Shown: positions 6,107-58,974 of the stretch, in pieces
How positions within the stretch are numbered: the stretch's first letter is position 1
How the letters are laid out: each line of letters opens with the position of its first letter
DNA from: Elusimicrobiota bacterium
Lineage (GTDB): Bacteria > Elusimicrobiota > Elusimicrobia > 2-02-FULL-39-32
Length of the DNA stretch: 64,000 nucleotides
NCBI GenBank assembly: GCA_021730935.1
Contig: JAKFYJ010000004.1
Location: 142,412-206,411, forward strand
Direction: 5' to 3'
Notes under the pieces: generated by a model
What the model saw: the letters and a program-made list of their open reading frames with translations, nothing else
The model's database searches: none
What the model was told of the DNA's origin: nothing
Made by a program: the position numbers and the translations under genes

Positions 6107-6126
6107 GTTTCAATTATATCAAATGC

Positions 6127-8127
6127 TTAAAACGATCCAGGGCGGATGGTGCGTTGAGGCACGGGGCAATAATCGGAGAAATAGGGCAGGTGAGACTTGA
6201 TTTTGGTGAGAGCTTCCTCGGCGGCGACTTCGCCCAGGGGGATGATTTGCTTTGCGCGGTGAAGGTCGATCCAGGAGAAATTTCCTGTTTCGGGGTGGAT
6301 CATGATGTGGGAGAGGTCGGTGCGCGCGGCCGCAATTTGATATTGCATCGTATAGATCATTTTAAAAAAGACATTGAAAAATCCCGGGGAACTTGAAGGG
6401 AACATGCCCACTCTCCTGAGGGAAACCCGGCGTTCGGAAGCTTTGTTGGTGAGGTTGATCGAGATCAGGATGTTGGCGCCCATGGAGGCGATGATGCTGG
6501 TGGGAACAGGGTTCACGAGGCCGCCGTCCACGAGGAATTTTGTCCCGATCTTATAAGGAACGAAGATCATGGGGAGAGACAGGCTCGCGCGCACGGCTTC
6601 CCAGACTTTGCCTTCGCGCAAAACCACGCCGTCGCCGGTCATGATGTCGGTGGCGGCGCAGGCGAAGGGGGTGGGGAACTCCTCAAAATCGATGTCGCCC
6701 AGGTGTTTGCGCAAAAAATTTGAAATGGTGTCGCCCTTGATGAGGCCGCCGTGGAAAAGCCAGTTGATGTCCCGGAATATGTTGCGCCGGAGCCAATCTT
6801 TGGAGATGGAGTGGGCGATCTCCTCGATCTCGTCAGCGGATTTTCCCGAAGCGGAGAGAGAGCCCAGGAGCGCCCCCATGGAGGTGCCGGAAATATAGTC
6901 GATGGGTATTTTTTCGCGCTCAAAAATTTTGAGCATTCCGATCAGGGTGTATCCATAGGCCGCGCCCGACCCCATGGCGAGCCCCACCTGCACTCTCCCG
7001 ATGGCCCGCCCCATCCGGTCCAGCGCTTTTTTTGTGCCGGAAGCGACCGCGACGCCGTTGGCTGGGCCGTTCCAGGGAACATAAAACTTCGTCGGCGAAG
7101 ATGCCCGCAACGGGCCCAGGATCGCTTCATAAAATCTGGGAATTTCCGGGACCTCGTCTTCATATCTGAACTGCGGCGGCTGGTTCCCCTTGTGGGCATG
7201 GATGAGTCCGTCGCATTCGCTGAGCACATGGCGGACGCTCTCGTCCAGTTTGCCGGGGCTTTCGGGCCGTGATTTTGCCGTGCTCATGTTGATGAGGACA
7301 TAATCATAAACTTCGAGGAGCACCGTCATGAAAGCCGGGACCGCGCGTTGGAACTGGCCCGCGAAAATGTCGTCCGGAAGGAGCAGAAGTTCCAGGCCGG
7401 ATGCGGGGTGCAGGAGAGAAATTTTTTCAAGAATTTTGGGGTTGGTGAGGTCTTCCGAGCGGAACATCGACGAAGTCGAGGTCACGGGTTTGAGTCCGAG
7501 GGCGTCCGCCAGGACCGTCCCCTGGTTTCCGAGCTCCACCAGCAGGACCCGCCTCCGCGTCTGTTCTTTGATCGAGAAAGAGAGGTTCGCCAGGAACGCG
7601 AGCTGTTCGTCGCGCGGCAGTTCCATCATCACGGCCAGGACTTCGGGGCTGAACGAAGGGCTCATGGACTTTTTCGGGCGGATGATGAGGCGCTGGCTGA
7701 TGACGCGGTGAAGATAAGTCGAAGCTCTGGGATTTTTGAGGAGGAAATTTTCAAAATCCATTTTATAGAGGACGAGGAAATGGGCCGGGCTGTCCACTTT
7801 GATGGTTGCGGTGCGGGTGGTTCCGGTCAGGAGCGCGGTTTCCCCGAAAGTTTCGCCGCGCCCGAGGAAATTGAGAATTTTTTCACTGCCCGTCTCGTCG
7901 GGGGTCACGGCCCGGACTCTGCCGGACTGGATGAAATAAAGCGCGTCCGCCCTGTCGTTTTCGCGATAGACGACCGCGCCTTTGGGCAGGGAGAGGGGCT
8001 GAAGTTTGGCCGCGATCTGTTTGAGTTCTTCGGCTTCGAGGTCGTGGAAGAGGGGGGCCCGCCTGAGGAGGTGACTCCATTCGTCCAGGAAGTCTTGGCG
8101 CACCGGTCTCTCGCTCATGATCGGCAT
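6127..8127 (-). CDS. Cyclic-nucleotide-binding-domain patatin-like phospholipase (NTE-like)
   Basis: N-terminal cNMP-binding domain ([18 protein letters not shown]). C-terminal patatin domain with GxSxG (GTSMGALLG) and the catalytic DGG (DGGLVNPVP). Confidence 0.8.
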
Positions 8128-8167: not shown

Positions 8168-8860
8168 ATGAAAAACGATAAATTCGCTCTCCTGAGCAGG
8201 GTCTCGCTTCTGCAGGGGCTTTCCACCAAACACCTCAACCAGATCGCGGCCTTCGCCAAGTTCCATCACTTCAAGCGCGGAGAAAGCATTTTTTCCGAAT
8301 CGTCTTCGGGCGAGTGCCTCTATGTTCTCGTCTCGGGGCGCGTGAAGATTTATACTTCGACCGGCGCCAAGACCAAAACATTCGCGCTGCTTGATCCGGG
8401 CGATTTCTTCGGCGAAATGGCGCTCCTCGGCGAACCCACGCGGTCGGCCAGCGCCCGGGCCATTTTGGACACGGAACTCCTCGTGCTGGAACGGAAAGAT
8501 TTTCATAAATTTTTGAAAGACGATTCGTTCCTCTCCCTCACGATTTTGCGCACCCTCTGCGACCGCCTCCGGCGCGCCAACAAGGAAATTGAAAGCCTGT
8601 CGTTTCAGAATGTGGTCGGGCGCACGGCGGCCACGCTCCTGGACCTGGAATCCAAATACGGAAAAGCTTCGAGCGCCGGAACCCTGATCGACGCCGGAAT
8701 CACCCAGCAGGAACTGGCCGACCTCATCGGCACCGCCCGCGAAATGGTGACCCGCGTGCTCACGAAATTCCGCGCCATGGGCGCCATCGCTTTGGACAAA
8801 CCCACCGGCAAAGTCATCATCCTCGACCGAGACAAACTCAAGAACTGCATCTACCAATAA
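8168..8860 (+). CDS. Crp/Fnr family transcriptional regulator (cNMP-binding + HTH)
   Basis: cNMP-binding fold (FGEMALLGEPTRSASARA) and a C-terminal HTH (ITQQELADLIGTAREMVTRVL). Start chosen at MKNDKF; the ORF track's 8117 start would overlap the divergent patatin gene. Confidence 0.85.
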   Translation: MKNDKFALLSRVSLLQGLSTKHLNQIAAFAKFHHFKRGESIFSESSSGECLYVLVSGRVKIYTSTGAKTKTFALLDPGDFFGEMALLGEPTRSASARAILDTELLVLERKDFHKFLKDDSFLSLTILRTLCDRLRRANKEIESLSFQNVVGRTAATLLDLESKYGKASSAGTLIDAGITQQELADLIGTAREMVTRVLTKFRAMGAIALDKPTGKVIILDRDKLKNCIYQ

Positions 8861-10149
8861 TGGAAGAAAAGAAACCGCAGGAACCCCTGCAGGCGGCCCG
8901 CGGGATGCATGACATCCTGCCCTCCCGTTCGGATCGATACGCTTCCATGGAGTCCGCCGCGCGCAAGGTGTTCAGCGCTTTCAATTACACCGAAATCCGC
9001 ACGCCCGTCATGGAACCCGCCGAGCTTTATGAACGCGCCATCGGGGAAACCACCGACATCGTCGAGAAAGAAATGTTCGTCCTGAAAGACCGCGGCGACC
9101 GGCGCCTGTGCCTCAGGCCCGAGGGAACAGCCGGCATCGTGCGGGCTTATATCGAAAATAATCTCGGCCACGAGTTTCCAATAGCCAAGTTTTTTTATAT
9201 CGGGCCCATGTTCCGGGCGGAACGGCCCCAGAAAGGGCGATATCGCGAGTTCGTTCAGATCGGGTCGGAATATTTCGGAAACGAACGGCCCGCGGCGGAC
9301 GCCGAGACGATCATTCTGGCCCATTCCCTCATAAAAAAATTCGGCCTGTCCGACATTCAGATTTTGGTGAACACCATCGGGTGCCCCGCCTGCCGGCCGA
9401 AATATCTTGAAGTCCTGAAAGCGTATCTTGAAGGCAAGAAAAACGATCTCTGCGAGAACTGCCGCACGCGCCTGGTGAAAAATCCCCTGAGAGCGCTCGA
9501 CTGCAAGGAGGATGCGGACAAATTTGGAGACGCTCCCAAGACGGTGGATCACCTTTGCGAAGCGTGCAGGACGCATTATGCTTCCGTCCTGGAACACTTG
9601 AAAAGCGCGCAGGTCCCTTTCGCGGAGCGGCCCCGCCTCGTGAGAGGGCTGGATTATTATACGCGCACCGTTTTTGAAGTTTATTCGACGGGCAATACGG
9701 GTTCGCAGGGCGCGCTCGCCGCGGGCGGCAGATATGACGGGCTCGTGGAACAGCTGGGCGGGAACCCTGTCCCTGCCGTCGGTTTCGCTTTGGGCGTGGA
9801 GCGAGTTTTGAATGAGCTGGACGCCGCGTCTCCGGTTTCAGACGCGAAATCACGGAGAGGCGTTTTCCTCATTCCCTTGGGCGCGCCGGCTTATGAGGTC
9901 GTGCAGAAACTTCTGATTCAGGTGCGGGAGGCGGGCATTCCTGCGGAGTCCGGCGCGGCGGATCAGAGCATCAAATCCCAGATGCGCCTGGCGGATCGGA
10001 TCGGCGCGGAATATTGCGTCATCATCGGAGACAACGAACTTGCGAGCGGCGAATTTGCGCTCAAAAATCTGGAAAGCAAAAGTCAGCAGAACATTCCCAA
10101 AGACAAACTGGTCCAGGTCCTTGTTGATCGCTATTCCGTGAAATCATGA
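8860..10149 (+). CDS. hisS: Histidine--tRNA ligase
   Basis: 429 aa with class II aaRS motifs (RGMHDILP, FRAERPQKGRYREFVQ, GGRYDGL) and a C-terminal anticodon-binding domain. Confidence 0.9.
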   Translation: MEEKKPQEPLQAARGMHDILPSRSDRYASMESAARKVFSAFNYTEIRTPVMEPAELYERAIGETTDIVEKEMFVLKDRGDRRLCLRPEGTAGIVRAYIENNLGHEFPIAKFFYIGPMFRAERPQKGRYREFVQIGSEYFGNERPAADAETIILAHSLIKKFGLSDIQILVNTIGCPACRPKYLEVLKAYLEGKKNDLCENCRTRLVKNPLRALDCKEDADKFGDAPKTVDHLCEACRTHYASVLEHLKSAQVPFAERPRLVRGLDYYTRTVFEVYSTGNTGSQGALAAGGRYDGLVEQLGGNPVPAVGFALGVERVLNELDAASPVSDAKSRRGVFLIPLGAPAYEVVQKLLIQVREAGIPAESGAADQSIKSQMRLADRIGAEYCVIIGDNELASGEFALKNLESKSQQNIPKDKLVQVLVDRYSVKS

Positions 10150-11384
10150 AACAGAAGATTTATTTCGATTACAATTCCACCACGCCGGCGCGTCCGGAAG
10201 TGGTGCAGGCCATGATGCCCTATCTCGATTCTGCGACGGGGCTCTTCGGAAACCCTTCCAGCGTCCACACTTTCGGACAGGCGACGCGGGCGGCGGTGGA
10301 AGACGCGCGCAAAAAAGTCGCGGCGCTTCTCGGATGTTCCGCCGACGAAATCGTTTTCACTTCCTGCGGTTCGGAATCCGACACCACCGCGATCAAGGGA
10401 ACGGCCTTCTCGGCGCGCGAACGCAAAAAGGGCGGACACATCATCACGAGCGCCATCGAGCACGACACGGTCCTTTTCTGTTGCGATTATTTGAGCAAAA
10501 ACGGTTTTGAAGTCACTTATCTGCCGGTGGACAGCGCGGGGCTGGTCCATCCTGACGACGTGAAAAAAGCGATCCGCCAAGACACCATCCTCATCAGCGT
10601 CATGCACGCCAACAATGAGATCGGGACGATTGAGCCGATCGGTGAGATCGGAAAAATCGCGCGCGAAAGGGAAATCCCGTTTCACACCGACGCCGTCCAG
10701 ACCGTGGGGAAAATTCCGACGAAAGTGAATGACTTGAATGTCGACATGCTTTCGCTTTCGGCGCATAAATTTTATGGTCCCAAAGGCGTGGGCGCCCTCT
10801 ATCTCCGGAAAGGCACGCGCCTGCACCCTCTCTTTCACGGGCACCACGAGAAAAATCGGCGGGCCGGGACAGAGAATGTCGCGGGCATCGTGGGCTTGGG
10901 CGTTGCGGCAGAGATCGCCATGAAAGAAATGGAGTCCGACGGCAAGAGAGTCGCCGCCTTGAGAGACCGTCTTGAGCGGGGCATCATCGGATCAATTCCG
11001 AGCATTCATTTGAACGGCCACCCGGCCTTGAGAGTGCCGAGCACCACCAATTTCAGTTTTGAATATGTCGAAGGCGAAGGTTTGGTTGTGCTTCTGGATG
11101 TGGAAGGAGTCGCGGTCTCCACGGGTTCCGCCTGCGCGTCCGGCACGACGCAAGCGTCTCACGTGCTTCGCGCCATCGGCGTCGCTCCCAATGTCGCTCA
11201 GGGCGCGGTCCGTTTTTCCCTGGGCCATTTCAGCACGGAACAGGAAGTGGATGACGTTTTGAAAATAATCCCTCAAGTGGTGGATCGTCTGCGCTCCCTC
11301 TCGCCGCTGTGGGCCGACAAGATCGCCGGGCGCGTGACGGAAATCACTCCCGCGGAACGGTTCATCAAGCCCGCAAAAAAATAA
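10146..11384 (+). CDS. Cysteine desulfurase (NifS/IscS family, PLP-dependent)
   Basis: Class V aminotransferase motifs: SAHKFYGPKGVGALY (PLP lysine) and active-site SGSACAS. The start overlaps the hisS stop (ATGA). Confidence 0.9.
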   Translation: MKQKIYFDYNSTTPARPEVVQAMMPYLDSATGLFGNPSSVHTFGQATRAAVEDARKKVAALLGCSADEIVFTSCGSESDTTAIKGTAFSARERKKGGHIITSAIEHDTVLFCCDYLSKNGFEVTYLPVDSAGLVHPDDVKKAIRQDTILISVMHANNEIGTIEPIGEIGKIAREREIPFHTDAVQTVGKIPTKVNDLNVDMLSLSAHKFYGPKGVGALYLRKGTRLHPLFHGHHEKNRRAGTENVAGIVGLGVAAEIAMKEMESDGKRVAALRDRLERGIIGSIPSIHLNGHPALRVPSTTNFSFEYVEGEGLVVLLDVEGVAVSTGSACASGTTQASHVLRAIGVAPNVAQGAVRFSLGHFSTEQEVDDVLKIIPQVVDRLRSLSPLWADKIAGRVTEITPAERFIKPAKK

Positions 11385-11386
11385 AA

Positions 11387-12238
11387 TTGAAAGACCAAGC
11401 CCTCTCCTTTAAAAAAGCATTGTGGTGGTCCATCTTCTGGATCCTGGCGGCGCTCGCCTTTAACGCGGGGATTTATTTTTGGATGGGAAAAGAAAAGGCG
11501 CTCCTCTTTTTCACGGGTTATGTCATTGAGCGGTCGCTCAGCATGGACAACCTTTTTGTTTTTCTCCTCATCTTCAAATATTTCAAGGTCCCGGACCTGT
11601 ATCAGCCGCGCGTCCTCGAGTGGGGCATCATCGGCGCTTTGGTGATGCGCTTCATCATCATCCTCGGGGGATCGGCGCTCCTCAACATGTTTCAGTGGAT
11701 TTTTTATGTGTTCGGCGTCCTGATCATCTTCACGGCCTATCGCATGATCGTGGACGAAGATAAAGAGCTCAATCACGAAAAAAATGTGATCCTGCGCCTC
11801 TTTAAAAAAATCATGCCGATCTCTTCCGCGAAAGTGGACGGCCACCATTTCTTCACCCGCGAAAACGGGGTCCTTCACGCGACGCCTCTTTTCGTGACGC
11901 TCCTGATCATCGAAAGTTCCGACCTCGTTTTCGCCGTGGACTCCATCCCCGCCATCTTCGCCATCACGACCGACACCTTCATTGTTTATACCTCCAATGT
12001 TTTTGCCATCCTCGGTCTCCGCGCGTTCTATTTCCTCCTCAGCGCCTTGATGCCCATGTTTAAATATCTCAAATACGGGATCTCCATTGTCCTCTTTTTT
12101 GTGGGAGTGAAAATGCTCCTCATGGAGTTTGTTCACATCTCCACCGCCGTTTCCCTGACCGTGGTTTTGGGAGTGCTCACCGCGTCTGTGCTCGTTTCTC
12201 TCCTCTCCAACAGCAAGGAGCCCCATGCCGCAGATTAA
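11387..12238 (+). CDS. TerC family integral membrane protein
   Basis: Multi-TM protein with the TerC signature (ERSLSMDNLFVFLLIF ... ESSDLVFAVDSIPAIFAIT). A TTG start at 11387 directly after the desulfurase stop is assumed; the ORF track's 11309 start overlaps that gene. Confidence 0.75.
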   Translation: MKDQALSFKKALWWSIFWILAALAFNAGIYFWMGKEKALLFFTGYVIERSLSMDNLFVFLLIFKYFKVPDLYQPRVLEWGIIGALVMRFIIILGGSALLNMFQWIFYVFGVLIIFTAYRMIVDEDKELNHEKNVILRLFKKIMPISSAKVDGHHFFTRENGVLHATPLFVTLLIIESSDLVFAVDSIPAIFAITTDTFIVYTSNVFAILGLRAFYFLLSALMPMFKYLKYGISIVLFFVGVKMLLMEFVHISTAVSLTVVLGVLTASVLVSLLSNSKEPHAAD

Positions 12239-14927
12239 AAAGTGGAACATCCTCATTTATTTCGCCATCTTCGCCGTCTTTTCCTTCGGCGGCAGGGCGG
12301 TGAACCTGATCACGGATTATTTCTGGTTTCAGGAAGTCGGCTTCGCCTCCATTTTCTCAAAAGTGTTCGCGGTTCAATCCTCCCTGTGGGGGATCGCCTT
12401 TGCGGTCACGGTCCTCTCTCTTTATATTAATTGGCACATCGCGGCGAAAGTGTGCCGCAGGCCTTTCGTCGTGATCGAGAGGGAAAACATCCTCTCCGCT
12501 ATCCCCTTGCCGCAGGTCGCAGAACTCAAACCATATCTCCGAACCATCCTCATCGCTCTTCTCGCGCTGTTCACTTTCCTCATGTCCAATTGGGCCGGGG
12601 ACCAATGGGAGACTCTGCTCAAGTTTTTTCACGGCGTTCCTTTCGGGAGCAAGGATCCCGTGTTCATGAAGGATATCGGGTTTTATGTTTTTGAGCTTCC
12701 TTTTTATAAATTTCTTTTCCAGTTTTTCATGACGCTCACGCTGGCGTGTTTCGCGATGACGGTGGGGATGTATGTCGTGAACGCCAGGATCTATTGGACG
12801 GCGCGCGGCGTGCAGATCGCGGACGGAGCCAAGATCCAGTGGGCCGTCCTTGGCGGGTTTTTCGCGCTCCTCCTCGCCTATCATTTTCAGGTGGACATGT
12901 ATGACCTCTTGCAGTCCCAGCGCACGCTCGCTCCCGGCGCCGGTTTCTCAGACTTGAACGCCTATCTCCCGGGCTTGAAAATTCTCCGGTTCATCGGCGT
13001 GCTTGCCGCTCTCCTCCTCTGGGCGTCGCCCTATTATTTTGACCTGAAGCTTATTTTCGCGGCCGGGCTCCTGATCGTGCTGGGCCCTCTCCTGGCCCGA
13101 ACCTATTCCGAGACGGTGCAGAAATTTCAGGTGGCCCCCAACGAGATCGTGAAAGAAACGCCTTATATCCAGCAGGCGATCCGCTCCACCCGCGAGGCTT
13201 ATGGACTCTCGAACATCCAGGAACTGGAATTCAATCCCAACGAAAACCTGACGGTCGAAGCGCTCAAGCAGAACGACGTCACCATCAAAAATATCCGCCT
13301 TTGGGAACATAAGCCTTTGCTCACATCCTATGGCCAGCTTCAGGAAATCCGCACCTATTATGATTTTCTGGACGCCGACAATGACCGCTATCTTGTGAAC
13401 GGCGAACTCCGCCAGATCATGCTTTCCGCCCGGGAGCTGGCGCCCGAGAGTCTCCCGTCCCGCATCTGGATCAACGAGCACCTCACCTATACCCACGGCT
13501 ACGGCATCTGCATGGGGCCCGTGAACCGCATTTCTCCCGAGGGGCTTCCGGAATTTTTCATCAAGGATATTCCGCCGAAATCCTCCGTCGACATCGAGAT
13601 CAAGCGGCCCGAAATTTATTTCGGCGAAGCGCGCGCGGGATATTGCATCGTGAAAACTGCGTCCAAGGAATTCGATTATCCGTCGGGCGAAGAAAATGTC
13701 TATACGACCTATACCGGGAAAGGCGGCGTGCCGGTCAAGAATTTCTTTCGGAAACTCCTTTTCGCGGTCCGCTTCGGCGAACTCAAAATATTGCTGTCCG
13801 GAGACATCACGGCCGAGAGCCGGTTCCTCTATAATCGTTCGGTGAGGGAACGCGTGGAAGAAGCCGCGCCGTTCATCCGCTTTGAGACGGACCCTTATGC
13901 AGTCATCACAAAGGAGGGCAGGATCGTCTGGATCATCGACGGATATTCCACCACGGACCATTATCCCTATTCCGAGGCCATCGGCGACTTGAATTATGTC
14001 CGCAACTCCGTGAAAGCCACCGTGGACGCCTATGACGGAACCCTCCATTTTTATATCGCCGACGCCGCGGACCCTTTGATCCAAACCTATGCGAATATAT
14101 TTCCCGGCATTTTTGAGCCGATCCAATCAATGCCTGAAGACCTTCACGCCCACATCCGCTATCCTCAGACGCTCATGAACATCCAGGCCAGGATCTATGC
14201 GACGTATCACATGACGGACCCGCAGGTTTTCTATAACAAAGAAGACATCTGGAAAATTCCCATGCGCGTCGCCGGCGGAGCGAACCAGGCGATGGAACCT
14301 TATTACACGATCATGAAGCTCGCGGGGCAAACGCAGAAGGAGGAATTCATTTTGATGGTGCCCTTCACTCCGTCCAAGAAAGAGAACATGATCAGTTGGA
14401 TGGCCGCCCGTTGCGACGCCCCCAATTATGGCAAACTGCTCGTCTATAATTTCCCCAAACAGAAGCTGGTTTATGGTCCCCAGCAGATTGAGTCCCGCAT
14501 CGATCAGGACGCGGAAATTTCCAAACAGCTGACGCTCTGGGACCAGGGCGGAAGTCGGGTGTTGCGCGGCAGTCTCCTCGTGATCCCCGTCGATCAATCC
14601 TTGCTTTATGTCCAGCCGCTTTATCTGGAAGCGTCCGGCGGGGGACTTCCGGAACTCAAACGCGTCATCGTGGCTTATGGCAACTCGATCGCCATGGAAG
14701 AAAATCTGGAACTCTCTCTCGCGAGAATTTTCGGGGGCAAGATTGATCGGCGTTCCAGCCAGGAAATGTCTTCGCCCTCAACGGGGGACCAGGGGTTCCG
14801 GCGGAGCGCCAGGCAGGCGCAGGAACATTTTGACCGCGCCCAGAAAGCCATGCGCTCGGGCGACTGGGCGGCCTATGGCGCAGAGATGGAAAGCGTCGGA
14901 AAAATTTTAAATTCTCTCGGAAAATAA
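12225..14927 (+). CDS. UPF0182-family large membrane protein
   Basis: 900 aa with about seven N-terminal TM helices, then a large soluble domain. The N-terminal DYFWFQEVGF motif resembles UPF0182 proteins. The identification is from memory, not a search. Confidence 0.6.
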   Translation: MPQIKKWNILIYFAIFAVFSFGGRAVNLITDYFWFQEVGFASIFSKVFAVQSSLWGIAFAVTVLSLYINWHIAAKVCRRPFVVIERENILSAIPLPQVAELKPYLRTILIALLALFTFLMSNWAGDQWETLLKFFHGVPFGSKDPVFMKDIGFYVFELPFYKFLFQFFMTLTLACFAMTVGMYVVNARIYWTARGVQIADGAKIQWAVLGGFFALLLAYHFQVDMYDLLQSQRTLAPGAGFSDLNAYLPGLKILRFIGVLAALLLWASPYYFDLKLIFAAGLLIVLGPLLARTYSETVQKFQVAPNEIVKETPYIQQAIRSTREAYGLSNIQELEFNPNENLTVEALKQNDVTIKNIRLWEHKPLLTSYGQLQEIRTYYDFLDADNDRYLVNGELRQIMLSARELAPESLPSRIWINEHLTYTHGYGICMGPVNRISPEGLPEFFIKDIPPKSSVDIEIKRPEIYFGEARAGYCIVKTASKEFDYPSGEENVYTTYTGKGGVPVKNFFRKLLFAVRFGELKILLSGDITAESRFLYNRSVRERVEEAAPFIRFETDPYAVITKEGRIVWIIDGYSTTDHYPYSEAIGDLNYVRNSVKATVDAYDGTLHFYIADAADPLIQTYANIFPGIFEPIQSMPEDLHAHIRYPQTLMNIQARIYATYHMTDPQVFYNKEDIWKIPMRVAGGANQAMEPYYTIMKLAGQTQKEEFILMVPFTPSKKENMISWMAARCDAPNYGKLLVYNFPKQKLVYGPQQIESRIDQDAEISKQLTLWDQGGSRVLRGSLLVIPVDQSLLYVQPLYLEASGGGLPELKRVIVAYGNSIAMEENLELSLARIFGGKIDRRSSQEMSSPSTGDQGFRRSARQAQEHFDRAQKAMRSGDWAAYGAEMESVGKILNSLGK

Positions 14928-14934
14928 TTATAAA

Positions 14935-16074
14935 ATGGACGAACTAAAAATGTTCCTAAAAGAAAAACCACTTTCATTTAAAATCGCGCTCATCCTTTTC
15001 ATCGCGGGTCTTGTGCTCGCGTTCCGCACCCTCCGCGTGATGTGCACGGAACAGCAGGAAGAGCCGGAGATCGTCGCCAAAATCAGCGTGCAGAAACCCA
15101 AACATGTTCACGGCGTCCACGTCACATCGTGGGCGGCGGGCTCTGTGAGGTTCAGAAAACACATCTGGGCCCTGCTGGACGAAACCGAGATCAACACGCT
15201 CGTGATCGGGATCAAGGAAGTGGACGGAGTGGTGGCGGTTCCGGGCGTGGCCCGGGCCATTCAGTCCAAGGCGTATCAGGACGCGATTCCGGACCTCCCG
15301 CAGTTCATGAACGAACTTAAAAGGCGCGGAATCTATCCCGTGGCCCGCCTGGTGGTGTTCAAGGACAAACATTTCTCTCTCGCCAATCCCCAGCTTTCCA
15401 TCAAGAATCCCGACGGGACAGTTTGGAAGGACCACGCCGGCAATTCCTGGCTGGACCCCTATAACAAAGAAGTTTGGGAATATGTTTTTTCCATCGCCAA
15501 GCGATGCATCGAAGTGGGGTTCCAGGAAATCCAGTTTGATTACATCCGTTATCCCTCCGACGGCGACATCAAGAAGTGCCGATATTCCTATGCGCACCAC
15601 AATTCCAGCTCCGCCGCCGCCAACCTGGAAGCGTTCCTCGCCGAAGCCAACAAGCGGTTCAAGCCCATGGGAGCGAATCTCTCCATTGACATCTTCGGCT
15701 TGATTCCTTCCGTCGACAACGACATGGGCATCGGGCAGAGTTTCCTGCGCATGACGAATCAGGTGGATTATGTCTCCCCGATGGTTTATCCGTCGCATTA
15801 TGCGAAAGGCGAATACGGCATCCCCGAGCCCAACCGCGAGCCGTACAAAGTCGTTCACCGCACCATGACAGACGCCAAGCGCAAACTCGGAGAAAATTTC
15901 ACGAAGCTTCGTCCCTATCTCCAGGACTTTTCTCTGGGCGGCGTGCGTTACGGCCCGGAAGAAATCAAGGCCCAGATCAAGGCCTGCAACGATCTCGGCA
16001 TCGAGGACTGGCTCCTCTGGAACGCCGGATCAAAATATACGATGGACGGATTGAAAGCCAGAGGCAAATCATGA
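14935..16074 (+). CDS. Membrane-anchored hypothetical protein, putative TIM-barrel glycoside-hydrolase-like
   Basis: N-terminal TM anchor and an otherwise conserved-looking soluble domain (WLDPYNKEVWEYVFSIAKRCIEVGFQEIQFDYIRYP) reminiscent of GH-like DUF proteins. Function uncertain. Confidence 0.4.
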   Translation: MDELKMFLKEKPLSFKIALILFIAGLVLAFRTLRVMCTEQQEEPEIVAKISVQKPKHVHGVHVTSWAAGSVRFRKHIWALLDETEINTLVIGIKEVDGVVAVPGVARAIQSKAYQDAIPDLPQFMNELKRRGIYPVARLVVFKDKHFSLANPQLSIKNPDGTVWKDHAGNSWLDPYNKEVWEYVFSIAKRCIEVGFQEIQFDYIRYPSDGDIKKCRYSYAHHNSSSAAANLEAFLAEANKRFKPMGANLSIDIFGLIPSVDNDMGIGQSFLRMTNQVDYVSPMVYPSHYAKGEYGIPEPNREPYKVVHRTMTDAKRKLGENFTKLRPYLQDFSLGGVRYGPEEIKAQIKACNDLGIEDWLLWNAGSKYTMDGLKARGKS

Positions 16075-17357
16075 GCCGCGCCGTTGCTGTCCCACCTATA
16101 TTTAATGAGCATGTGCATATTGAGAATTTTCTTGAGGATTTCGTGCTGGAGGAAAAACGCGATTTAATATTGAAGGACGCTGATCTCAAAACGGAAATAA
16201 ATTTTCGTCAATCAAACGGCATTGAATATCCCGTTTATGTCAATGAATTTTGGACCCCCAGACAGAGGCAGGGAAATGCGTTACATGAAGTGGCTTACCG
16301 TGCCTGTTTCAAGCCTCAGCTTCCAAGATTTTTTATCGAATTGCTGAGCCGCCCCGGAGACGTCGTTTATGATCCATTCAGCGGCAGAGGCACGACAGCG
16401 GTTGAGGCTGGTCTTCTGGGCCGCAATGTCATCGCCAATGACGCGAATCCTTTGAGCAGGATTCTGGCGAAACCTCGGCTGAACGTTCCTTCCCTGGATG
16501 AAATTGAACGGCGATTAACTTCAATAAAGATGGACGATCGCGCAAAGGCAGAATTGGATTTATCAATGTTCTATCATCCCAAAACGGAATCGGAAATCGT
16601 TTCGCTGAAACAATATCTTGAAATGAGGTCTGCCGCGGAAGCTGAAGATCATGTGGATGAATGGATCAGGATGATCGCGACGAACCGTCTGACCGGACAT
16701 TCTCCGGGATTTTTCTCAGTTTATACGTTGCCGCCCAATCAGGCCGTCAGCCCGCAGAGTCAGATAAAAATCAATTTCAAAAGAAATCAGTCTCCGGAAT
16801 ACAGGGACACAAAAAAATTGATCCGTCAAAAGTTTGTGAGCCTTACTTCTGAAATCAATGAAACACTCAGGGAACGTCTTAAAAGGATCAGCAGGGACGC
16901 GAAATTTTTGTCAGAAGACGCAAGGCGGACCACAAAAATACCTAGAGAGTCTGTGGACCTCACGGTCACTTCACCTCCGTTCCTCGATGTCGTCCAGTAT
17001 GCCGACGACAACTGGCTGAGGGGCTGGTTCAATGGAATCAATTTTGAGGAAGTCGAGAAAAAAATCACCGTATCGAAAACGATCGGGGACTGGCGCGGGA
17101 TCATGCAGGATGTTTTGTTAGAGCTTCGCCGGATAACAAAAGCCGGCGGGTGGATCGCATTTGAGGTGGGCGAGATCCGGAATGGGAGCATCAATCTTGA
17201 CGAGCATGTCGCCGGTCTTGGATTGAAGGCAGGGTTGGAATGCGCAGGGGTGGTCGTCAACAGCCAGGCATTTACGAAGACATCAAATATTTGGGGGATC
17301 AAGAACAATTCATCAGGCACGAACACCAATAGAATTGTTTTGTTTCAAAAGAAATGA
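16071..17357 (+). CDS. DNA methyltransferase (N4-cytosine or N6-adenine), R-M system candidate
   Basis: AdoMet-binding motif I (VVYDPFSGRGTTAVEA) and catalytic motif IV (SPPF, as in N4C/N6A MTases). The region is about 42% GC against about 58% flanking. Start overlaps the upstream stop (ATGA). Confidence 0.8.
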   Translation: MSRAVAVPPIFNEHVHIENFLEDFVLEEKRDLILKDADLKTEINFRQSNGIEYPVYVNEFWTPRQRQGNALHEVAYRACFKPQLPRFFIELLSRPGDVVYDPFSGRGTTAVEAGLLGRNVIANDANPLSRILAKPRLNVPSLDEIERRLTSIKMDDRAKAELDLSMFYHPKTESEIVSLKQYLEMRSAAEAEDHVDEWIRMIATNRLTGHSPGFFSVYTLPPNQAVSPQSQIKINFKRNQSPEYRDTKKLIRQKFVSLTSEINETLRERLKRISRDAKFLSEDARRTTKIPRESVDLTVTSPPFLDVVQYADDNWLRGWFNGINFEEVEKKITVSKTIGDWRGIMQDVLLELRRITKAGGWIAFEVGEIRNGSINLDEHVAGLGLKAGLECAGVVVNSQAFTKTSNIWGIKNNSSGTNTNRIVLFQKK

Positions 17358-18019
17358 CGGATTCAGAATACACAAAAAAGCTGGAAAGCGTCATCCGGCA
17401 GATGCTTACGCCTCTGAAAAGCCTGCCTTTTCCGCTTGTGGTTGAAGGGATTTCAAATCATAAAGTCCTTCCCTTCAACAGCAATGACTCTAAAGATTTG
17501 AAAGTGTTGGAGACTCTCAAATCAGTGGCGGTTCATGCAGGCAGGAAGATTAATGAGAATGGGATCCTGAGGTCCCGACCGAATGAAGTTGGGAATGATA
17601 TTGAAGCGTTTGTGAAATCTTCCATGAATGAAATCGGATACAAGGCTGAAACGCCTAAAACGCGCGGAGGTAAAAGAAAAACAACCGGCTATCCGGACCT
17701 TCGCTTCATTGATGAATTTGGACGAGCCCATTATCTTGAGTGCAAGACATTTAATATTGAAAACATCGATACGACTCAGAGGTCATTTTATCTGTCTCCT
17801 TCTGACGATTTTAAGGTGACGGAAGACGCTCTTCATTTTGTAATGTCCTTTGAAATTTTAGAAAAGACAAGAAAGGGATCGCAAAATCTTTACCATTGCC
17901 GAACATGGAAAATATTAACCTTGGATAAGCTATATGTAGATGTTAAATATGAGTTCAATTCTGATAATGCTCGCCTTTATGATGAGGATCTAATTCTGGC
18001 TGAAGGAGACGTCGTTTGA
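17354..18019 (+). CDS. Putative type II restriction endonuclease (PD-(D/E)xK)
   Basis: 221 aa, translationally coupled (ATGA overlap) to the MTase and also low-GC. Contains a PD-x14-ExK motif (YPDLRFIDEFGRAHYLECK). No recognisable family otherwise. Confidence 0.45.
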   Translation: MTDSEYTKKLESVIRQMLTPLKSLPFPLVVEGISNHKVLPFNSNDSKDLKVLETLKSVAVHAGRKINENGILRSRPNEVGNDIEAFVKSSMNEIGYKAETPKTRGGKRKTTGYPDLRFIDEFGRAHYLECKTFNIENIDTTQRSFYLSPSDDFKVTEDALHFVMSFEILEKTRKGSQNLYHCRTWKILTLDKLYVDVKYEFNSDNARLYDEDLILAEGDVV

Positions 18020-19092
18020 AGAAAAGGATCGTCGTCGCCATGTCGGGCGGAGTGGACTCTTCGGTCGCGGCGGCTCTCCTGAAATCGGAGGGACACGAAG
18101 TGATCGGGATCACGCTCCGGCTCTGGGCGCCTTCGTCCTGGAACGACGGCGACAAGTTCGGGAGCTGTTGTTCGCCCCGGGACGTCGCGGACGCCAAGGA
18201 GGTTTGCCGCAAACTCGATGTCCCGCATTACACCTATAACCTCGAGGACAAATTTCGGGAAACGGTCGTGGACAATTTTGTTTCGGAATATGCCGCGGGC
18301 CGAACTCCCAACCCCTGCGTGCGTTGCAACGCCTATGTGAAGTTTGACGTGCTTTTGAAATATGCCGTGGCGCTCAATGCGGATTATTTGGCCACGGGAC
18401 ATTATGCCAAGATCGAAAAATCCGGCGGCGCCTTTCAGCTCAAGAAAGCGGCGGACCTCACCAAGGATCAGTCTTATTTTCTTTATATGCTCGGCCAGAA
18501 AGAGCTTTCCCGCTTGCTGTTCCCTCTTGGGAATTTCACCAAGGTGCAGATCCGCGAGGCGGCCGAGAAATTCGGCCTTCCCACCGCGCGCAAGGCGGAC
18601 AGCCAGGACGTCTGTTTCCTCGAAGGCCGGGACTATCGCGAATTCGTGAGGATGCGGATGCCCGAGAAAAAGAAAGGGCTTATCAAAACCCGAGAGGGAA
18701 AAATTTTGGGTGAGCACGAGGGTCTCCCGTTTTATACGATCGGCCAGAGAGAAGGTTTGGGGATCGCCACAGGCGAGCGCACCTATGTCCTTGAAAAGGA
18801 CCTGGATTCCAACACGCTTTTCGTCGGAAACGCCGAGGAAGGCCTTTCCGGCTCCTGCGTCGTGGATTCCGTCACCTGGTGCAATTCGCTCGATAACAAA
18901 GAGGTCCGGTCCTCCGTCAAAATCCGTTATCGCCATCCAGGGGCCAACGCGCTTGTAAAACAAATCGCCCCCGGCCAGGTGAAAGTGTCTTTTGATGTTC
19001 CGCAGGCCGCCATCGCCATGGGCCAGTCCGCCGTTTTTTATGACGGAGAAACAGTTCTGGGAGGAGGAGTCATTTCCAATGTCAGTTCCTGA
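18016..19092 (+). CDS. mnmA: tRNA-specific 2-thiouridylase MnmA
   Basis: PP-loop motif SGGVDSS at the N-terminus and conserved MnmA cysteines (CVRCN; DVCFLEGRDY). Confidence 0.9.
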   Translation: MKKRIVVAMSGGVDSSVAAALLKSEGHEVIGITLRLWAPSSWNDGDKFGSCCSPRDVADAKEVCRKLDVPHYTYNLEDKFRETVVDNFVSEYAAGRTPNPCVRCNAYVKFDVLLKYAVALNADYLATGHYAKIEKSGGAFQLKKAADLTKDQSYFLYMLGQKELSRLLFPLGNFTKVQIREAAEKFGLPTARKADSQDVCFLEGRDYREFVRMRMPEKKKGLIKTREGKILGEHEGLPFYTIGQREGLGIATGERTYVLEKDLDSNTLFVGNAEEGLSGSCVVDSVTWCNSLDNKEVRSSVKIRYRHPGANALVKQIAPGQVKVSFDVPQAAIAMGQSAVFYDGETVLGGGVISNVSS

Positions 19093-20260
19093 TTCATTAA
19101 AACGCGGCGTAATCGAGATCATTTCCGAGAAAGAGCTTGCGGAAAAATTAGCGAAGGGAAAACCTCTCCGCATCAAGCTGGGCGTGGACCCGACGGCTCC
19201 GGACCTCCACCTGGGCCATACCGTCGTCTTAAACAAACTTAAAAATTTTCAGGACGCGGGACATACCATTGTTTTCATCATAGGAGACTTTACGGCCAAG
19301 ATTGGAGATCCTTCGGGGCGCAGTGAAACCCGCCCGCAGGTGGCCGGCGTGGACATAGAAAAAAATGCCGAAACCTATCTCTCTCAGGTGTCCAAAGTTT
19401 TGGATTCCACAAAAATGGAAGTGCGGAAAAATTCAGAGTGGCTGGAACAGGCATTCAACGTTTCTCAGATTGCTAAAATCGGTTCTGTGTTTTCCACTCT
19501 GTTCACTCGATACACGGTTCAGCAATTGATGCAAAGAGAGGATTTCGCTCAAAGGCTGAAGGCCGGCAGTCCGATCACGTTTATGGAAATGCTCTATCCC
19601 CTTTTTCAGGGCTACGATTCCGTCGCGGTTCAGGCCGATGTTGAAATCGGGGGCACGGATCAGCTTTTTAATCTTCTGATCGGCAGGGAAATTCAGAGGG
19701 ATTTCGGTCAGGTGCCGCAAGTGGTCATGACCCTTCCTTTGTTGGTCGGATTGGACGGCGTCCGGAAGATGTCCAAATCTTATGGAAACCATGTGGCGCT
19801 CAACGATCCTCCGTCGGAAATGTTCGGAAAAGTCATGTCGGTGCCGGATGAGCTTATGTGGCAATATTATGAGCTCCTGACTGACGAGAAACTGGCCGAC
19901 GTCAAAGCCCTTCATCCCAAGGAAGCCAAGGTCCGTCTCGCGAAATTTTTTGTGAGCCGTTATCATGGGGTTTCTGCCGCAGAGGGAGCCCAATCCGAAT
20001 TTGAAAAAGTTTTCTCCAAGGGGCATGTGCCGGAAGAAATTGAGGAGCACACGGCTTCCCAAAGCCGTCTCAACATTTCCAGCCTGCTTTTCGAGTCCGG
20101 CCTTTCGCCTTCCAAGAAAGAGTCCAAGCGTCTCATCGAAGGCGGCGGCGTGAAAATTGACGGAAAGGCGGTCGCGAACGATCAGGAAATCGAAATTTCA
20201 GGCCCGGTGGTCCTTCAGGTCGGCAAACGGAGATTCAAAAGGATTGTGGCCCCCAAATGA
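19079..20260 (+). CDS. tyrS: Tyrosine--tRNA ligase
   Basis: Class I motifs HLGH and KMSKS, and a C-terminal S4-like domain (KRLIEGGGVKIDGKAV). Start placed at MSVPD (19079), a 14-nt overlap with mnmA. Confidence 0.85.
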   Translation: MSVPDSLKRGVIEIISEKELAEKLAKGKPLRIKLGVDPTAPDLHLGHTVVLNKLKNFQDAGHTIVFIIGDFTAKIGDPSGRSETRPQVAGVDIEKNAETYLSQVSKVLDSTKMEVRKNSEWLEQAFNVSQIAKIGSVFSTLFTRYTVQQLMQREDFAQRLKAGSPITFMEMLYPLFQGYDSVAVQADVEIGGTDQLFNLLIGREIQRDFGQVPQVVMTLPLLVGLDGVRKMSKSYGNHVALNDPPSEMFGKVMSVPDELMWQYYELLTDEKLADVKALHPKEAKVRLAKFFVSRYHGVSAAEGAQSEFEKVFSKGHVPEEIEEHTASQSRLNISSLLFESGLSPSKKESKRLIEGGGVKIDGKAVANDQEIEISGPVVLQVGKRRFKRIVAPK

Positions 20261-22050
20261 ATGCCAAAAAAATTCTTTTTATTGTTTTGATGGGCCTGGG
20301 CGGGCGTCTGAGCGCGGAAGAGATTTCGACGCCGACCGTCCAGATTGCGCCTGAAATCCAAATCACCTATCCCCGCGAAGGCATGAAGATTCCTGCGGTC
20401 CGGCGTTCGTTCGTGCTGGGGTTCGTAAAGCCCGCGAGCGCCACGGTCACCTTGAACGGCTCCACCATCGCCGTTTATCACACAGGCTCTTTTTCCGCGA
20501 TGATTCCATATTCGCCGGGCGAGTTCAGGATTTTGGCAGAAGCGGAGCTGAACGGGTCCACGGCCTCCGCAGTCCGCAATGTCCTTGTGAACCAGCCCCC
20601 TGAAACGCTTTCGACCGCGACCCTCGCCATTCTTCCGGACACCCTTGCTCCGACACAAGATCTGAAACTGCCCTCCGGCGAAAATTTCTCCGTCCGTTTC
20701 CGCGGAACTCCCGGCGCCGAAGCCCATTGCCGGTTCAAATCCAAAAACGAGAGCGGCTCCTGGCAGGCCATGCAGGAACGCGACGGCTCGCCCGGGAACT
20801 ATGACGCCCAGATGGTTCTGCCCAAAGAGCAGGGCAAAGAATTTTCAGTGGAGTTTCGTTTATCGAAAGGAAAGAAATCAATCACCGCGGCCGCTTCCGG
20901 GAAAGTGAGATCCTCTGATCCCCAGAAAACCTATGTCGTGGAAGTGAGCACCGGGGAAACCATCCTGCGCACGGGGCCCGCCGTCAACGGAGACACCATG
21001 GGATATGATCTCTTCGTCCCAAGAGGCGTGAAACTGAAAGCTCAGGGTTTTTCCGGGAACGAAGTCCGCCTCAAACTTTCCGACAGCGAAATCTTGTGGG
21101 GCGACGAAAAGCATCTGGCGCTCCTTCCGGAAACCGTTCCGGCCCCGTCTTCCGTGATCGACGGCGTTCATTCGACGAACAGGGAAAAAAGCCTGGTCCT
21201 GTCATTCGATCTGAGGGACAAAGTCCCGTTCCGCGCCATCCTTTCCGACGACAATAAAACATTCAAAGTCCGTCTCTATTACACCGTTTCCAACCTTGAC
21301 CGCATCCGCTATGACACCGCGAGCCCCGACCCCTGGGCTCAGGAAATCCGCTGGGCTCAGAAAGACAAGGATCAGGTTGAAATTTCCATTTCACTCCGGG
21401 AAAAAGTCTGGGGATATCATTTCCGCTATGAAGGCAGCCGTCTCGTCTGCGAGATCGCTTTCGCTCCGGCCCCGAAAAAAATCTGGAGCGGCCTTGAAGG
21501 GATCCTGGTCGCGGTGGATCCCGGACATTCTCCGGTCCTGGGCGACGGAGCCGTGAGTCCCGCCGGACACAAGGAAGGCGACGTCAACTTCATGCTTGCC
21601 GGAGCATTGAAAGATAAACTTGAAAAACTCGGAGCCAAAGTTTTCATGACCCGCGAGAAAGAAGATTATGTCGCGCTTGCGGAACGGGGCAAAAGAGCCG
21701 CCGCGGCAGGGGCCGACCTCTTCGTTTCGGTCCACACCAACGCGGTCCCGGACGGGACAGATCCCATGGCCCGGAGCGGATACAGCGTTTTTTATTTTCA
21801 TCCCATGAGCCTGGCTTTCGCAAAGTTTGTCCATTCCTCTTTTCCAAAGTATGCTAAAATGCAGGACGATGGACTCTATTACGGAAACCTTGCCGTATGC
21901 CGTCCGCCGCAAATCCCCTCCATCCTCGTTGAGGCGGCGTATCTGATCCGCCCTGATGAAGAAGAACTTCTGCTTGATCCCGATTTCCAGAACCGAGCCG
22001 CTGAGGGCATTGCCCAGGGCATCCTCGATTTCATCCGCTCAACGCGATAA
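20257..22050 (+). CDS. N-acetylmuramoyl-L-alanine amidase (Amidase_3) with N-terminal beta-rich domains
   Basis: Signal peptide, then a C-terminal Amidase_3 domain (VAVDPGHSPVLGDGAVSPAGHKEGDVNF...LFVSVHTNA). Confidence 0.85.
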   Translation: MNAKKILFIVLMGLGGRLSAEEISTPTVQIAPEIQITYPREGMKIPAVRRSFVLGFVKPASATVTLNGSTIAVYHTGSFSAMIPYSPGEFRILAEAELNGSTASAVRNVLVNQPPETLSTATLAILPDTLAPTQDLKLPSGENFSVRFRGTPGAEAHCRFKSKNESGSWQAMQERDGSPGNYDAQMVLPKEQGKEFSVEFRLSKGKKSITAAASGKVRSSDPQKTYVVEVSTGETILRTGPAVNGDTMGYDLFVPRGVKLKAQGFSGNEVRLKLSDSEILWGDEKHLALLPETVPAPSSVIDGVHSTNREKSLVLSFDLRDKVPFRAILSDDNKTFKVRLYYTVSNLDRIRYDTASPDPWAQEIRWAQKDKDQVEISISLREKVWGYHFRYEGSRLVCEIAFAPAPKKIWSGLEGILVAVDPGHSPVLGDGAVSPAGHKEGDVNFMLAGALKDKLEKLGAKVFMTREKEDYVALAERGKRAAAAGADLFVSVHTNAVPDGTDPMARSGYSVFYFHPMSLAFAKFVHSSFPKYAKMQDDGLYYGNLAVCRPPQIPSILVEAAYLIRPDEEELLLDPDFQNRAAEGIAQGILDFIRSTR

Positions 22051-29573: not shown

Positions 29574-29646
29574 TGAGCCCGGGGGGGATCGAACCCCCGA
29601 CAACTCGATTAAAAGTCGAGTGCTCTACCAGCTGAGCTACGGGCTC
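29574..29646 (-). tRNA. tRNA-Lys (anticodon UUU)
   Basis: Minus-strand sequence GAGCCCGTAGCTCAGCTGGTAGAGCACTCGACTTTTAATCGAGTTGTCGGGGGTTCGATCCCCCCCGGGCTCA folds as a cloverleaf. The anticodon loop is CUUUUAA and the T-loop is TTCGATC. CCA is not encoded. Confidence 0.85.
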
Positions 29647-58401: not shown

Positions 58402-58974
58402 TTGCCGATGAAAAACTTTAAATCAGGGATTCAAAAAGGGCTGGGCATTCTGCTAGTACTTTTTCTTGCAGCATTATGCTTTGTGGCATGGTGCTCATAT
58501 TGCCCAAAACTTCACTATCTCAATGCTTATCTTCCTAAAGACAATATTCAAATATCCTTAAGTGATGTTCAGATAAAAACACTAAATCAACTTATATCAA
58601 AGGGGATTGTTATTTCCGCAAGCGACCTATATAACGACACTATTGCTTTTTACAGTACACTTATCACCTGGCTCATTGGTATTTTAGGGATCAGCGGAAT
58701 CATTGGCTTTATATATGTGAGGAGTAAATCGCGTGAAGAAGCTGAGCACGAAGCTGAAAAAGCAGTTGATAACTATTTTGCCAAACAATCAGTGCATGAC
58801 ATGTTGGACAATAAGATTAAATCCGAGGTAGATAATCAACTTGAGGATGTGAAGAAAGATCTTGAAAGTTTGGAAGATATACAAGGAATAAAAGATAGCA
58901 TTCAAAAAATTGAAGAGAAAATTGAAGTTCTTGAAACAGATTCGGATAGGGTTATTCCTAAGGAGCCTGATTAA
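58402..58974 (+). CDS. Hypothetical 2-TM protein with C-terminal coiled coil (first gene of the low-GC operon)
   Basis: TM helices (GLGILLVLFLAALCFVAW; LITWLIGILGISGIIGFIYV) followed by an E/K-rich coiled coil. About 35-38% GC. Confidence 0.5.
   Translation: MPMKNFKSGIQKGLGILLVLFLAALCFVAWCSYCPKLHYLNAYLPKDNIQISLSDVQIKTLNQLISKGIVISASDLYNDTIAFYSTLITWLIGILGISGIIGFIYVRSKSREEAEHEAEKAVDNYFAKQSVHDMLDNKIKSEVDNQLEDVKKDLESLEDIQGIKDSIQKIEEKIEVLETDSDRVIPKEPD

Follow-up and report, generated by a model that had tools for sequence, protein, structure and literature searches.

An apparently intact MjaV-family type II restriction-modification cassette, probably directed at GTAC, at the mnmA gene of an uncultured Elusimicrobiota bacterium

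What does a pair of low-GC genes do inside a run of housekeeping genes, which DNA sequence would it act on, and how did it come to lie directly in front of mnmA? These questions are raised by a 64,000-nucleotide (nt) stretch of an Elusimicrobiota bacterium (assembly GCA_021730935.1, contig JAKFYJ010000004.1, positions 142,412 to 206,411 of the forward strand), hereafter called the window. Two open reading frames (ORFs) on its + strand, gene 1 (M; 16071-17357, 428 amino acids (aa)) and gene 2 (R; 17354-18019, 221 aa), are joined by an ATGA in which the stop codon of M overlaps the start codon of R (17354-17357), as the initial annotation, made from the letters of the sequence, had already described. 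The same annotation proposed a candidate type II restriction-modification system, and the protein families, predicted fold, conserved residues and the linkage of M and R now speak for this proposal. We read the module as a classical two-gene type IIP-like restriction-modification cassette of the MjaV family, horizontally acquired at mnmA, that would convert GTAC to GTA(m4C) (m4C, N4-methylcytosine), and we give this reading a probability of roughly 70%. The orthodox features of a type II system are present, namely separate adjacent M and R genes, a complete PD-(D/E)XK site, and S-adenosylmethionine (AdoMet) and SPPF motifs. The cassette, predicted to consist of a MjaV-family nuclease and a permuted SPPF methyltransferase, is apparently intact.

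The nuclease carries most of this identification. Gene 2 matches the PADLOC type II restriction endonuclease model end to end (3.9e-39), and a precomputed Pfam label, PF27324 (MjaV), is recorded for the exact protein; searches of NCBIfam, of PDB sequences and of our local Pfam copy, which is without the PF27324 model, gave no match. Through a Methanothermococcus homologue of gene 2 we reached the prototype of the family, R.MjaV of Methanocaldococcus jannaschii (Q58895/MJ1500), with which gene 2 shares 37% identity end to end (235 columns, BLASTP E 8e-50). R.MjaV was active when cloned (PMC2615612), and the MjaV system recognises GTAC and methylates it to m4C (PMC11033074). Hence the view that gene 2 holds nothing recognisable beyond its catalytic pattern has to be given up, since the whole protein falls into a named restriction enzyme family. 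Nor is it rapidly evolving, as had been supposed. The family is large: 1667 homologues were found at E<=1e-3, and scanning 1.8 billion representatives turned up 558 relatives after clustering at 50% identity. The top 120 homologues are 59-67% identical to gene 2, all bear the PF27324 label and come from Elusimicrobia, Anaerolineae, Bacteroidota, candidate-phyla-radiation bacteria, Deltaproteobacteria and archaea. Plasmid and phage collections contained no match to gene 2.

The predicted catalytic core of the nuclease (17603-17746, + strand) places E84 on a long helix and P114-D115, E129 and K131 on the following strands. Among 96 diverse full-length family members these positions are conserved at 95% (E84), 98% (P114), 96% (D115), 89% (E129) and 100% (K131), and gene 2 keeps all 27 positions that are conserved in at least 85% of this set. 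Within a closer set of homologues all five residues belong to 44 invariant positions. The PD-x14-ExK pattern of the initial annotation thus exists, as the string YPD...ECK at aa 113-131, but 13 and not 14 residues lie between D115 and E129; clear homologues of the protein were found and they retain the PD-ExK residues. The AlphaFold model of gene 2 (predicted local distance difference test, pLDDT, 89.1; predicted template-modelling score, pTM, 0.85) resembles the type II enzymes SwaI, SfiI and EcoRV of the PD-(D/E)XK fold. Identity to the solved enzymes of the EcoRV-like branch (SwaI, EcoRV, HincII, NlaIV and ThaI) is only 9-18% and their recognition sequences differ, and at the sequence level no PDB chain was detectably matched by gene 2, those of this branch included. 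E84, D115, E129 and K131 are best regarded as the predicted catalytic residues of a putative endonuclease. Such an enzyme would be Mg2+-dependent, probably act as a homodimer and cut its site when unmethylated, as in incoming phage or plasmid DNA.

Gene 1 is intact as a gene and encodes the predicted partner methyltransferase. Residues 49-428 match the PADLOC type II methyltransferase model MTase_II PDLC03325 (9.6e-142), and Pfam N6_N4_Mtase is matched at 5.1e-18 with its halves in swapped order, aa 55-126 corresponding to profile positions 138-212, the C-terminal part. Motif I, VVYDPFSGRGTT (containing DPFSGRGTT; aa 98-109, 16362-16397, + strand), forms the AdoMet-binding loop, and motif IV, TSPPF (aa 300-304, 16968-16982, + strand), the catalytic loop; the two lie ~200 aa apart, in agreement with the initial annotation. 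Both are conserved in 63 homologues of 57-64% identity, with D101, P102, F103, G105, R106, G107 and T108 of motif I and T300, S301, P302, P303 and F304 of motif IV invariant in 63/63. According to the AlphaFold (AF2) model (pLDDT 83.5), the Rossmann core is split by a helical domain at ~aa 127-276, a putative target-recognition domain. Inside this insert lies a further block conserved in the same homologues, WIRMIATNRLTGHSPGFFSVYTLPPNQA (aa 198-225, 16662-16745, + strand), with invariant W198, M201, T204, R206, L207, G209, H210, S211, F215, S216, Y218, T219, P221, P222, N223, Q224 and A225. The methyltransferase may recognise its DNA through this block; residues 217-224 form a low-confidence loop in the predicted model.

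The motif order of gene 1 (X/I, helical insert, IV) is of the alpha type, with the AdoMet region N-terminal and the catalytic region C-terminal. On sequence grounds, the protein is a permuted relative of the beta-class N4/N6 enzymes: its residues 58-137 align to the C-terminal halves of M.PvuII (1BOO), M.RsrI (1EG2) and TTHA0409 (2ZIE) with E values of 2e-6 to 2e-5, motif I falling on motif I, and its catalytic half (aa 277-321 or 283-321, with E values in the same range) aligns to the N-terminal SPPY, DPPY and SPPF regions of TTHA0409, M.RsrI and M.PvuII, respectively. In contrast to these three enzymes, the halves of gene 1 stand in the opposite order and are separated by the ~150-aa helical insert (aa 127-276). 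A Foldseek search of the model against the PDB returned only generic Rossmann class I methyltransferases (Trm11, TrmN; TM score ~0.3), because the solved DNA N4/N6 enzymes are permuted relative to gene 1 and the search is order-dependent. N4-cytosine methyltransferases have S-P-P-(Y/F) as their signature. In gene 1 the loop is an invariant S-P-P-F, shared with M.PvuII and corresponding to the SPPY of M.MjaV, from which we infer that the product of gene 1 would be N4-methylcytosine. The enzyme would transfer a methyl group from AdoMet to an exocyclic amino group (N4 of cytosine) in a short palindrome and so protect the host DNA. As a side observation on the family, one gene 1 homologue of 718 aa (P0286) carries a transposase-like zinc-ribbon region (Pfam PF12760/PF12762) fused to its N-terminus and sits on a 109-kilobase (kb) contig that also carries a nuclease homologue (P0048); the fusion hints that some copies of the gene 1 family travel with IS1595-type elements.

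Comparison with the MjaV system itself shows where the resemblance ends. The nucleases are homologous over their full length and share the PD...E-x-K core, YPDI...IEIK in R.MjaV and YPDL...LECK in gene 2, and the catalytic loop of both methyltransferases is SPP(Y/F), as in m4C enzymes. The gene order in M. jannaschii is R (MJ1500), a 160-aa ORF and a convergent gene for M.MjaV (MJ1498), a 292-aa beta-class enzyme, whereas here M lies directly upstream of R on the same strand with the ATGA overlap. M.MjaV has SPPY in its N-terminal and motif I in its C-terminal part, the opposite of the order in the 428-aa gene 1, and the resemblance between the two proteins is limited to the conserved motifs, in segments of ~80 aa with 28-30% identity that align in swapped order. 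We thus rejected gene 1 as a beta-class methyltransferase of the M.MjaV type on account of its motif order, its length and a similarity confined to motifs.

Whether such a nuclease normally occurs together with a methyltransferase was addressed in 80 loci with nuclease homologues from species-representative genomes. An SPP(Y/F) methyltransferase gene adjoins the nuclease gene in 78/80 and is located immediately upstream on the same strand in 75, with a median gap of 8 nt (<=30 nt in 55/75). In 42 loci the gene directly upstream, on the same strand, is orthologous to gene 1 (48-67% identity); two loci have a partial copy of such an orthologue directly upstream, and in one locus each the orthologue lies downstream on the same strand or is convergent. 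Another 31 loci have, directly upstream, a second, strongly diverged family of 415-444 aa with the same motif order and SPPY, and one (L055) has a convergent beta enzyme of the M.MjaV type. Hence one MjaV-like nuclease family is paired with three SPP(Y/F) methyltransferase lineages, two mutually divergent families of ~415-430 aa in which motif I precedes motif IV, and the ~290-aa M.MjaV type, in which it follows. Of the remaining two loci, one comes with no upstream sequence. The other, L023 (JACRCC010000047.1, a metagenome-assembled genome of Deltaproteobacteria; nuclease at 6001-6624), contains no methyltransferase of the three partner types within 6 kb; it is the only one of the 80 with ample flanks and no partner, and as such counts against our reading. 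As 78/80 loci and M. jannaschii pair the nuclease with a methyltransferase, the family is essentially always part of a restriction-modification pair.

These data bear on the possibility that the nuclease is inactive or silent and the methyltransferase solitary, so that the module would be a decaying remnant in a housekeeping operon. Archaea commonly possess orphan m4C GTAC methyltransferases (PMC10609329), the Shine-Dalgarno sequence of gene 2 is weak, and our scan for promoters and terminators in and around the module found none above background, leaving the two genes inside the operon without signals of their own. Gene 2, however, is of full length, with no frameshift or internal stop and with every position of at least 85% conservation kept, the catalytic residues among them; an ATGA-coupled order from M to R is the norm of the family; and the GC content at third codon positions (GC3) of the module (0.41-0.52, against ~0.70 in the host) leaves little time for decay. 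We therefore judge a solitary methyltransferase with a dead partner to be very unlikely. For the functional pair, the missing promoter and terminator signals are consistent with operon-borne expression. M and R would be co-transcribed with the surrounding operon, and their probable translational coupling through the ATGA would favour synthesis of the methylase before the nuclease. The same gene arrangement is present in two independent Logan short-read assemblies.

The most likely target is GTAC, modified to GTA(m4C). This specificity is taken from family membership only, because gene 2 is a full-length relative of R.MjaV and both M.MjaV and M.RsaI produce GTA(m4C), the latter as reported in PMC3287169. 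The RsaI system of Rhodobacter blasticus 28/5 (GT^AC) agrees in the expected site and the modification type (PMC3287169, PMC6256690). The M.RsaI clone measured 3986 bp and the M.CviQI clone in the same vector 3566 bp, a difference of ~0.4 kb (PMC3287169). Both gene families have alphaproteobacterial members (L032, L077 and L080-L082). Given the size of the vector, the M.RsaI clone would have room for a methyltransferase at least ~400 aa long, comparable to gene 1. A blunt cut, GT^AC, as made by RsaI, is plausible for gene 2 because of its EcoRV/SwaI-like predicted fold, in line with the known behaviour of that structural branch. Furthermore, m4C methylation of GTAC is common in environmental genomes (bioRxiv 10.64898/2026.06.24.734251).

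We searched for an imprint of this specificity in word frequencies. The window contains 16 GTAC sites, against 249 expected from base composition, 44 from a first-order model (ratio 0.36) and 15.3 from a maximal-order Markov model (1.05), and CTAG (9), CTAC (11) and GTAG (15) are equally low. The rarity of GTAC in the window was consequently dismissed as evidence for specificity, since it disappears under the maximal-order model and is common to these other words. The module itself has no GTAC site, where the Markov models predict ~1. Pooling the 80 nuclease loci gave an observed/expected ratio for GTAC of 0.53 (maximal order), compared with 0.89 in 80 unrelated control loci; CTAG (0.43 versus 0.80) and GATC (0.54 versus 0.89) behaved in the same way, as did the M+R cassettes, and the controls were not taxonomically matched. 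This depletion of about two-fold is weak support for GTAC. Over 8 kb of syntenic sequence, GTAC occurs once in the window and 7 times in L083, a relative without the module that is described below (p ~0.07), a difference that we do not take to be site-specific, as all words with TAC or GTA are ~three-fold rarer in the window. Taken together, the avoidance data are compatible with GTAC and do not single it out.

Several of these results weigh against the GTAC assignment: GTAC is not depleted in the window under the maximal-order model while CTAG, CTAC and GTAG are as rare, and the pooled depletion is matched by CTAG and GATC. Furthermore, at 37% identity to R.MjaV restriction enzymes can change specificity, and the specificity cannot be read from M because gene 1 is a permuted protein of 428 aa and not a 292-aa beta enzyme like M.MjaV. 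A functional type II pair of the same families that recognises another sequence would accommodate the distance from R.MjaV, the different architecture of M and the lack of GTAC-specific avoidance in the window, together with the fact that the most depleted palindrome of the window is ACGT. Against such a pair stand the tight conservation of the nuclease family, whose members remain 59-67% identical between phyla with 44 invariant positions, and its partners, which are always of the SPP(Y/F) m4C type, as fits a single conserved specificity; GTAC is also found at about half of expectation in loci with family members, and the ACGT deficit is not tied to the module. We consider a target other than GTAC unlikely and retain GTAC as the probable site.

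The ACGT deficit is an observation in its own right. Of all 256 tetramers, the 4-bp palindromes included, ACGT is the one most depleted in the window under the maximal-order Markov model (70 versus 157 expected, z -8.4), possibly as the imprint of another restriction system that is encoded elsewhere in the genome. We do not link it to the module because the density in module-free L083 is similar (12 sites, versus 9 in the window, over the syntenic 8 kb). The scarcity of TAC is likewise visible in codon usage. The housekeeping genes at 8860-22050 use the tyrosine codons TAT and TAC 115 and 15 times despite a GC3 of ~0.70, while all other two-fold NNY pairs favour C (for instance GAC 118:GAT 58 and ATC 147:ATT 56); the orthologous genes of L083 have TAT 50:TAC 36. 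Avoidance of GTAC alone would not suffice for this skew, because CTAC falls from 21 in L083 to 1 in the window.

How the cassette reached its position is answered by syntenic relatives, which a metagenome scan with the DUF4015 protein yielded as L083, L084 and L085. In the closest, L083 (identities: Csd 82%, UPF0182 74%, DUF4015 75%, MnmA 67%), the order is Csd-TerC-UPF0182-DUF4015 and, across a spacer of 47 nt, mnmA-tyrS; M and R are wholly absent from it. The module is missing from L084 and L085 (52-58% identity) as well, where ~220 nt separate DUF4015 from mnmA-tyrS-amidase. When the module is removed in silico, the window is colinear with L083 at 72% nucleotide identity. Since mnmA comes directly after DUF4015 in all three relatives and the module is absent, we regard the module as an insertion, and the horizontal transfer suggested by the initial annotation is borne out. 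Composition agrees in kind. GC is 47.2% in gene 1, 41.0% in gene 2 and 45.1% in the module, compared with 54.8% in the DUF4015 gene, 55.9% in mnmA and 52.3% in the whole window, and GC3 is 0.52 and 0.41 in the two genes and 0.58-0.71 in their neighbours. The contrast noted earlier is thus real, but it amounts to 45% versus 55% (~10 points) and was overstated as 42 versus 58 (16 points).

The module could instead be ancestral at this site and deleted in the relatives. The junctions, being seamless stop/start overlaps with neither target-site duplication nor terminal repeats, integrase or transposase, would suit such a history. It would, however, require losses at the same site in three relatives at different distances (DUF4015 identities 75%, 56% and 52%), and the GC and GC3 of the module lie far under those of the surrounding genes, while its closest homologues are dispersed among unrelated phyla, namely Elusimicrobia, Anaerolineae, candidate-phyla-radiation bacteria and archaea. 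Ancestral presence followed by deletion is accordingly highly improbable in our view, and we continue with horizontal acquisition at the 5' end of mnmA.

The junctions allow the event to be outlined. On the left, the stop codon of the DUF4015 gene overlaps the start of gene 1 in a second ATGA (16071-16074, + strand), and the insertion point is somewhere in 16071-16097, with GC falling from 0.60-0.63 to 0.27-0.37 between 16070 and 16100. Gene 1 starts with ATGAGCCGCGCC (12 nt, MSRA...), which is still GC-rich and resembles the start of mnmA in L083, ATGAGCGCC. The homologues of gene 1 have shorter N-termini that lack an equivalent of its first ~9 residues. M thus appears to use the old initiation region of mnmA. 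On the right (18003-18019, + strand), the sequence AAGGAG (18003-18008) lies within the last codons of R, and the stop codon of R (TGA, 18017-18019), embedded in GTTTGAAGAAAAGGATCGTCGTCGCCATGTCGGGCGG, overlaps a candidate TTG start of mnmA at 18016 in a TTGA (18016-18019). This TTG, 8 nt after AAGGAG, yields MKKRIVVAMSGG, colinear with MSAKKRVVVAMSGG, the translation of the mnmA beginning of L083, ATGAGCGCCAAAAAAAGGGTTGTGGTGGCCATGTCGGGCGG. Gene callers start mnmA at ATG 18040 instead (350 aa). A start at TTG 18016 restores the conserved N-terminal strand KKR(I/V)VVA of L083 MnmA, and a start at ATG 18040 would, judging by the structure of MnmA, remove the strand before its SGGVDS PP-loop. The annotated start is probably too short, and mnmA is most likely now translated from the TTG that overlaps the R stop. 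On the simplest reading, the cassette integrated into mnmA at about the boundary of codons 3 and 4. The overlaps at 16071-16074 and 18016-18019, which the initial annotation did not mention, mean that an in-operon insertion has stop/start overlaps at all three of its junctions; this, and the pairing of one nuclease family with three methyltransferase lineages, is all that we would call unusual, and mildly so.

Machinery for such an insertion was looked for around the module. A search for flanking repeats found nothing beyond short chance matches, no integrase, transposase or other mobility gene occurs between hisS and the amidase gene, no tRNA gene lies near the module (the sole one of the window is at 29574-29646), and the window contains no rRNA gene. 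Insertion as a transposon, integrative element or prophage was rejected for want of flanking repeats, mobility genes, an adjacent tRNA gene, and plasmid or phage homologues. Horizontal acquisition with seamless insertion at the 5' end of mnmA is supported by the comparison with the module-free relatives. Separately, an exact 13-nt direct repeat, GGAGACGTCGTTT, occurs at 16356-16368 and 18005-18017. The first copy encodes PGDVVY at motif I, and the second encodes EGDVV and the stop codon at the nuclease end and includes the GGAG of AAGGAG. By a rough estimate, chance alone would produce ~0.05 such pairs in 2.7 kb; both copies are inside coding sequence, and we treated the repeat as a coincidence.

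The surrounding genes lie on one strand in the order crp-like regulator, hisS, class-V aminotransferase, TerC, UPF0182, DUF4015, M, R, mnmA, tyrS and amidase. The flanks were correctly read as a glycosidase-like gene and mnmA, the left neighbour being a DUF4015 "putative glycosyl hydrolase" (4.5e-103). The argument that the module separates a cysteine desulfurase from its sulfur-relay client mnmA is weak, because TerC, UPF0182 and DUF4015 already stand between the desulfurase-like class-V aminotransferase (Aminotran_5, 10146-11384) and the module, to which it is therefore not adjacent. In windows of 1949 bp, GC falls below 48% only at the module and in a second island at ~57-61 kb.

This second island is the stronger of the two, with ~35% GC at 58402-61183, between upp and a glycosyltransferase gene. 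It encodes a 190-aa protein of unknown kind, an ImmA/IrrE M78 peptidase (PADLOC capP, 6.7e-31; also RmrA and PD-Lambda-2_B), a "Beta protein" (PF14350; PADLOC beta 3.5e-50, PD-Lambda-2_C 4.5e-17) and, on the reverse strand, an ORF matching PADLOC "cll" (2.8e-28). Upstream of it, at 55269-56423, lies an AAA_14/DUF4143 ATPase gene (PADLOC PDC-S01, 3.6e-54). The island looks like another horizontally acquired candidate defence cluster; 6 of the 16 GTAC sites of the window are located in it.

MjaV-type restriction-modification is already catalogued, so the pair described here is an ordinary one and the family itself is not new. For annotation, the value lies in assigning a probable GTAC / GTA(m4C) system to an uncultured organism, and little beyond; such an assignment may be used for methylome prediction, for the design of DNA to be introduced and for matching phages with their hosts through methylation. 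How a cassette can enter an operon seamlessly, with no visible mobility machinery, is exemplified at the start of mnmA. Tentatively, and as something possible rather than probable, we suggest that the cassette has become locked into the housekeeping operon: the methylase would use the former ribosome-binding site and start of mnmA, and MnmA would be made only from the TTG that overlaps the nuclease stop, with a Shine-Dalgarno sequence, AAGGAG, supplied by the conserved A-E-G codons at the C-terminus of the nuclease. If this is true, expression of a tRNA-thiolation enzyme would depend on the translation of a restriction enzyme gene, and simple loss of the cassette would damage mnmA, a form of stabilisation beyond post-segregational killing.

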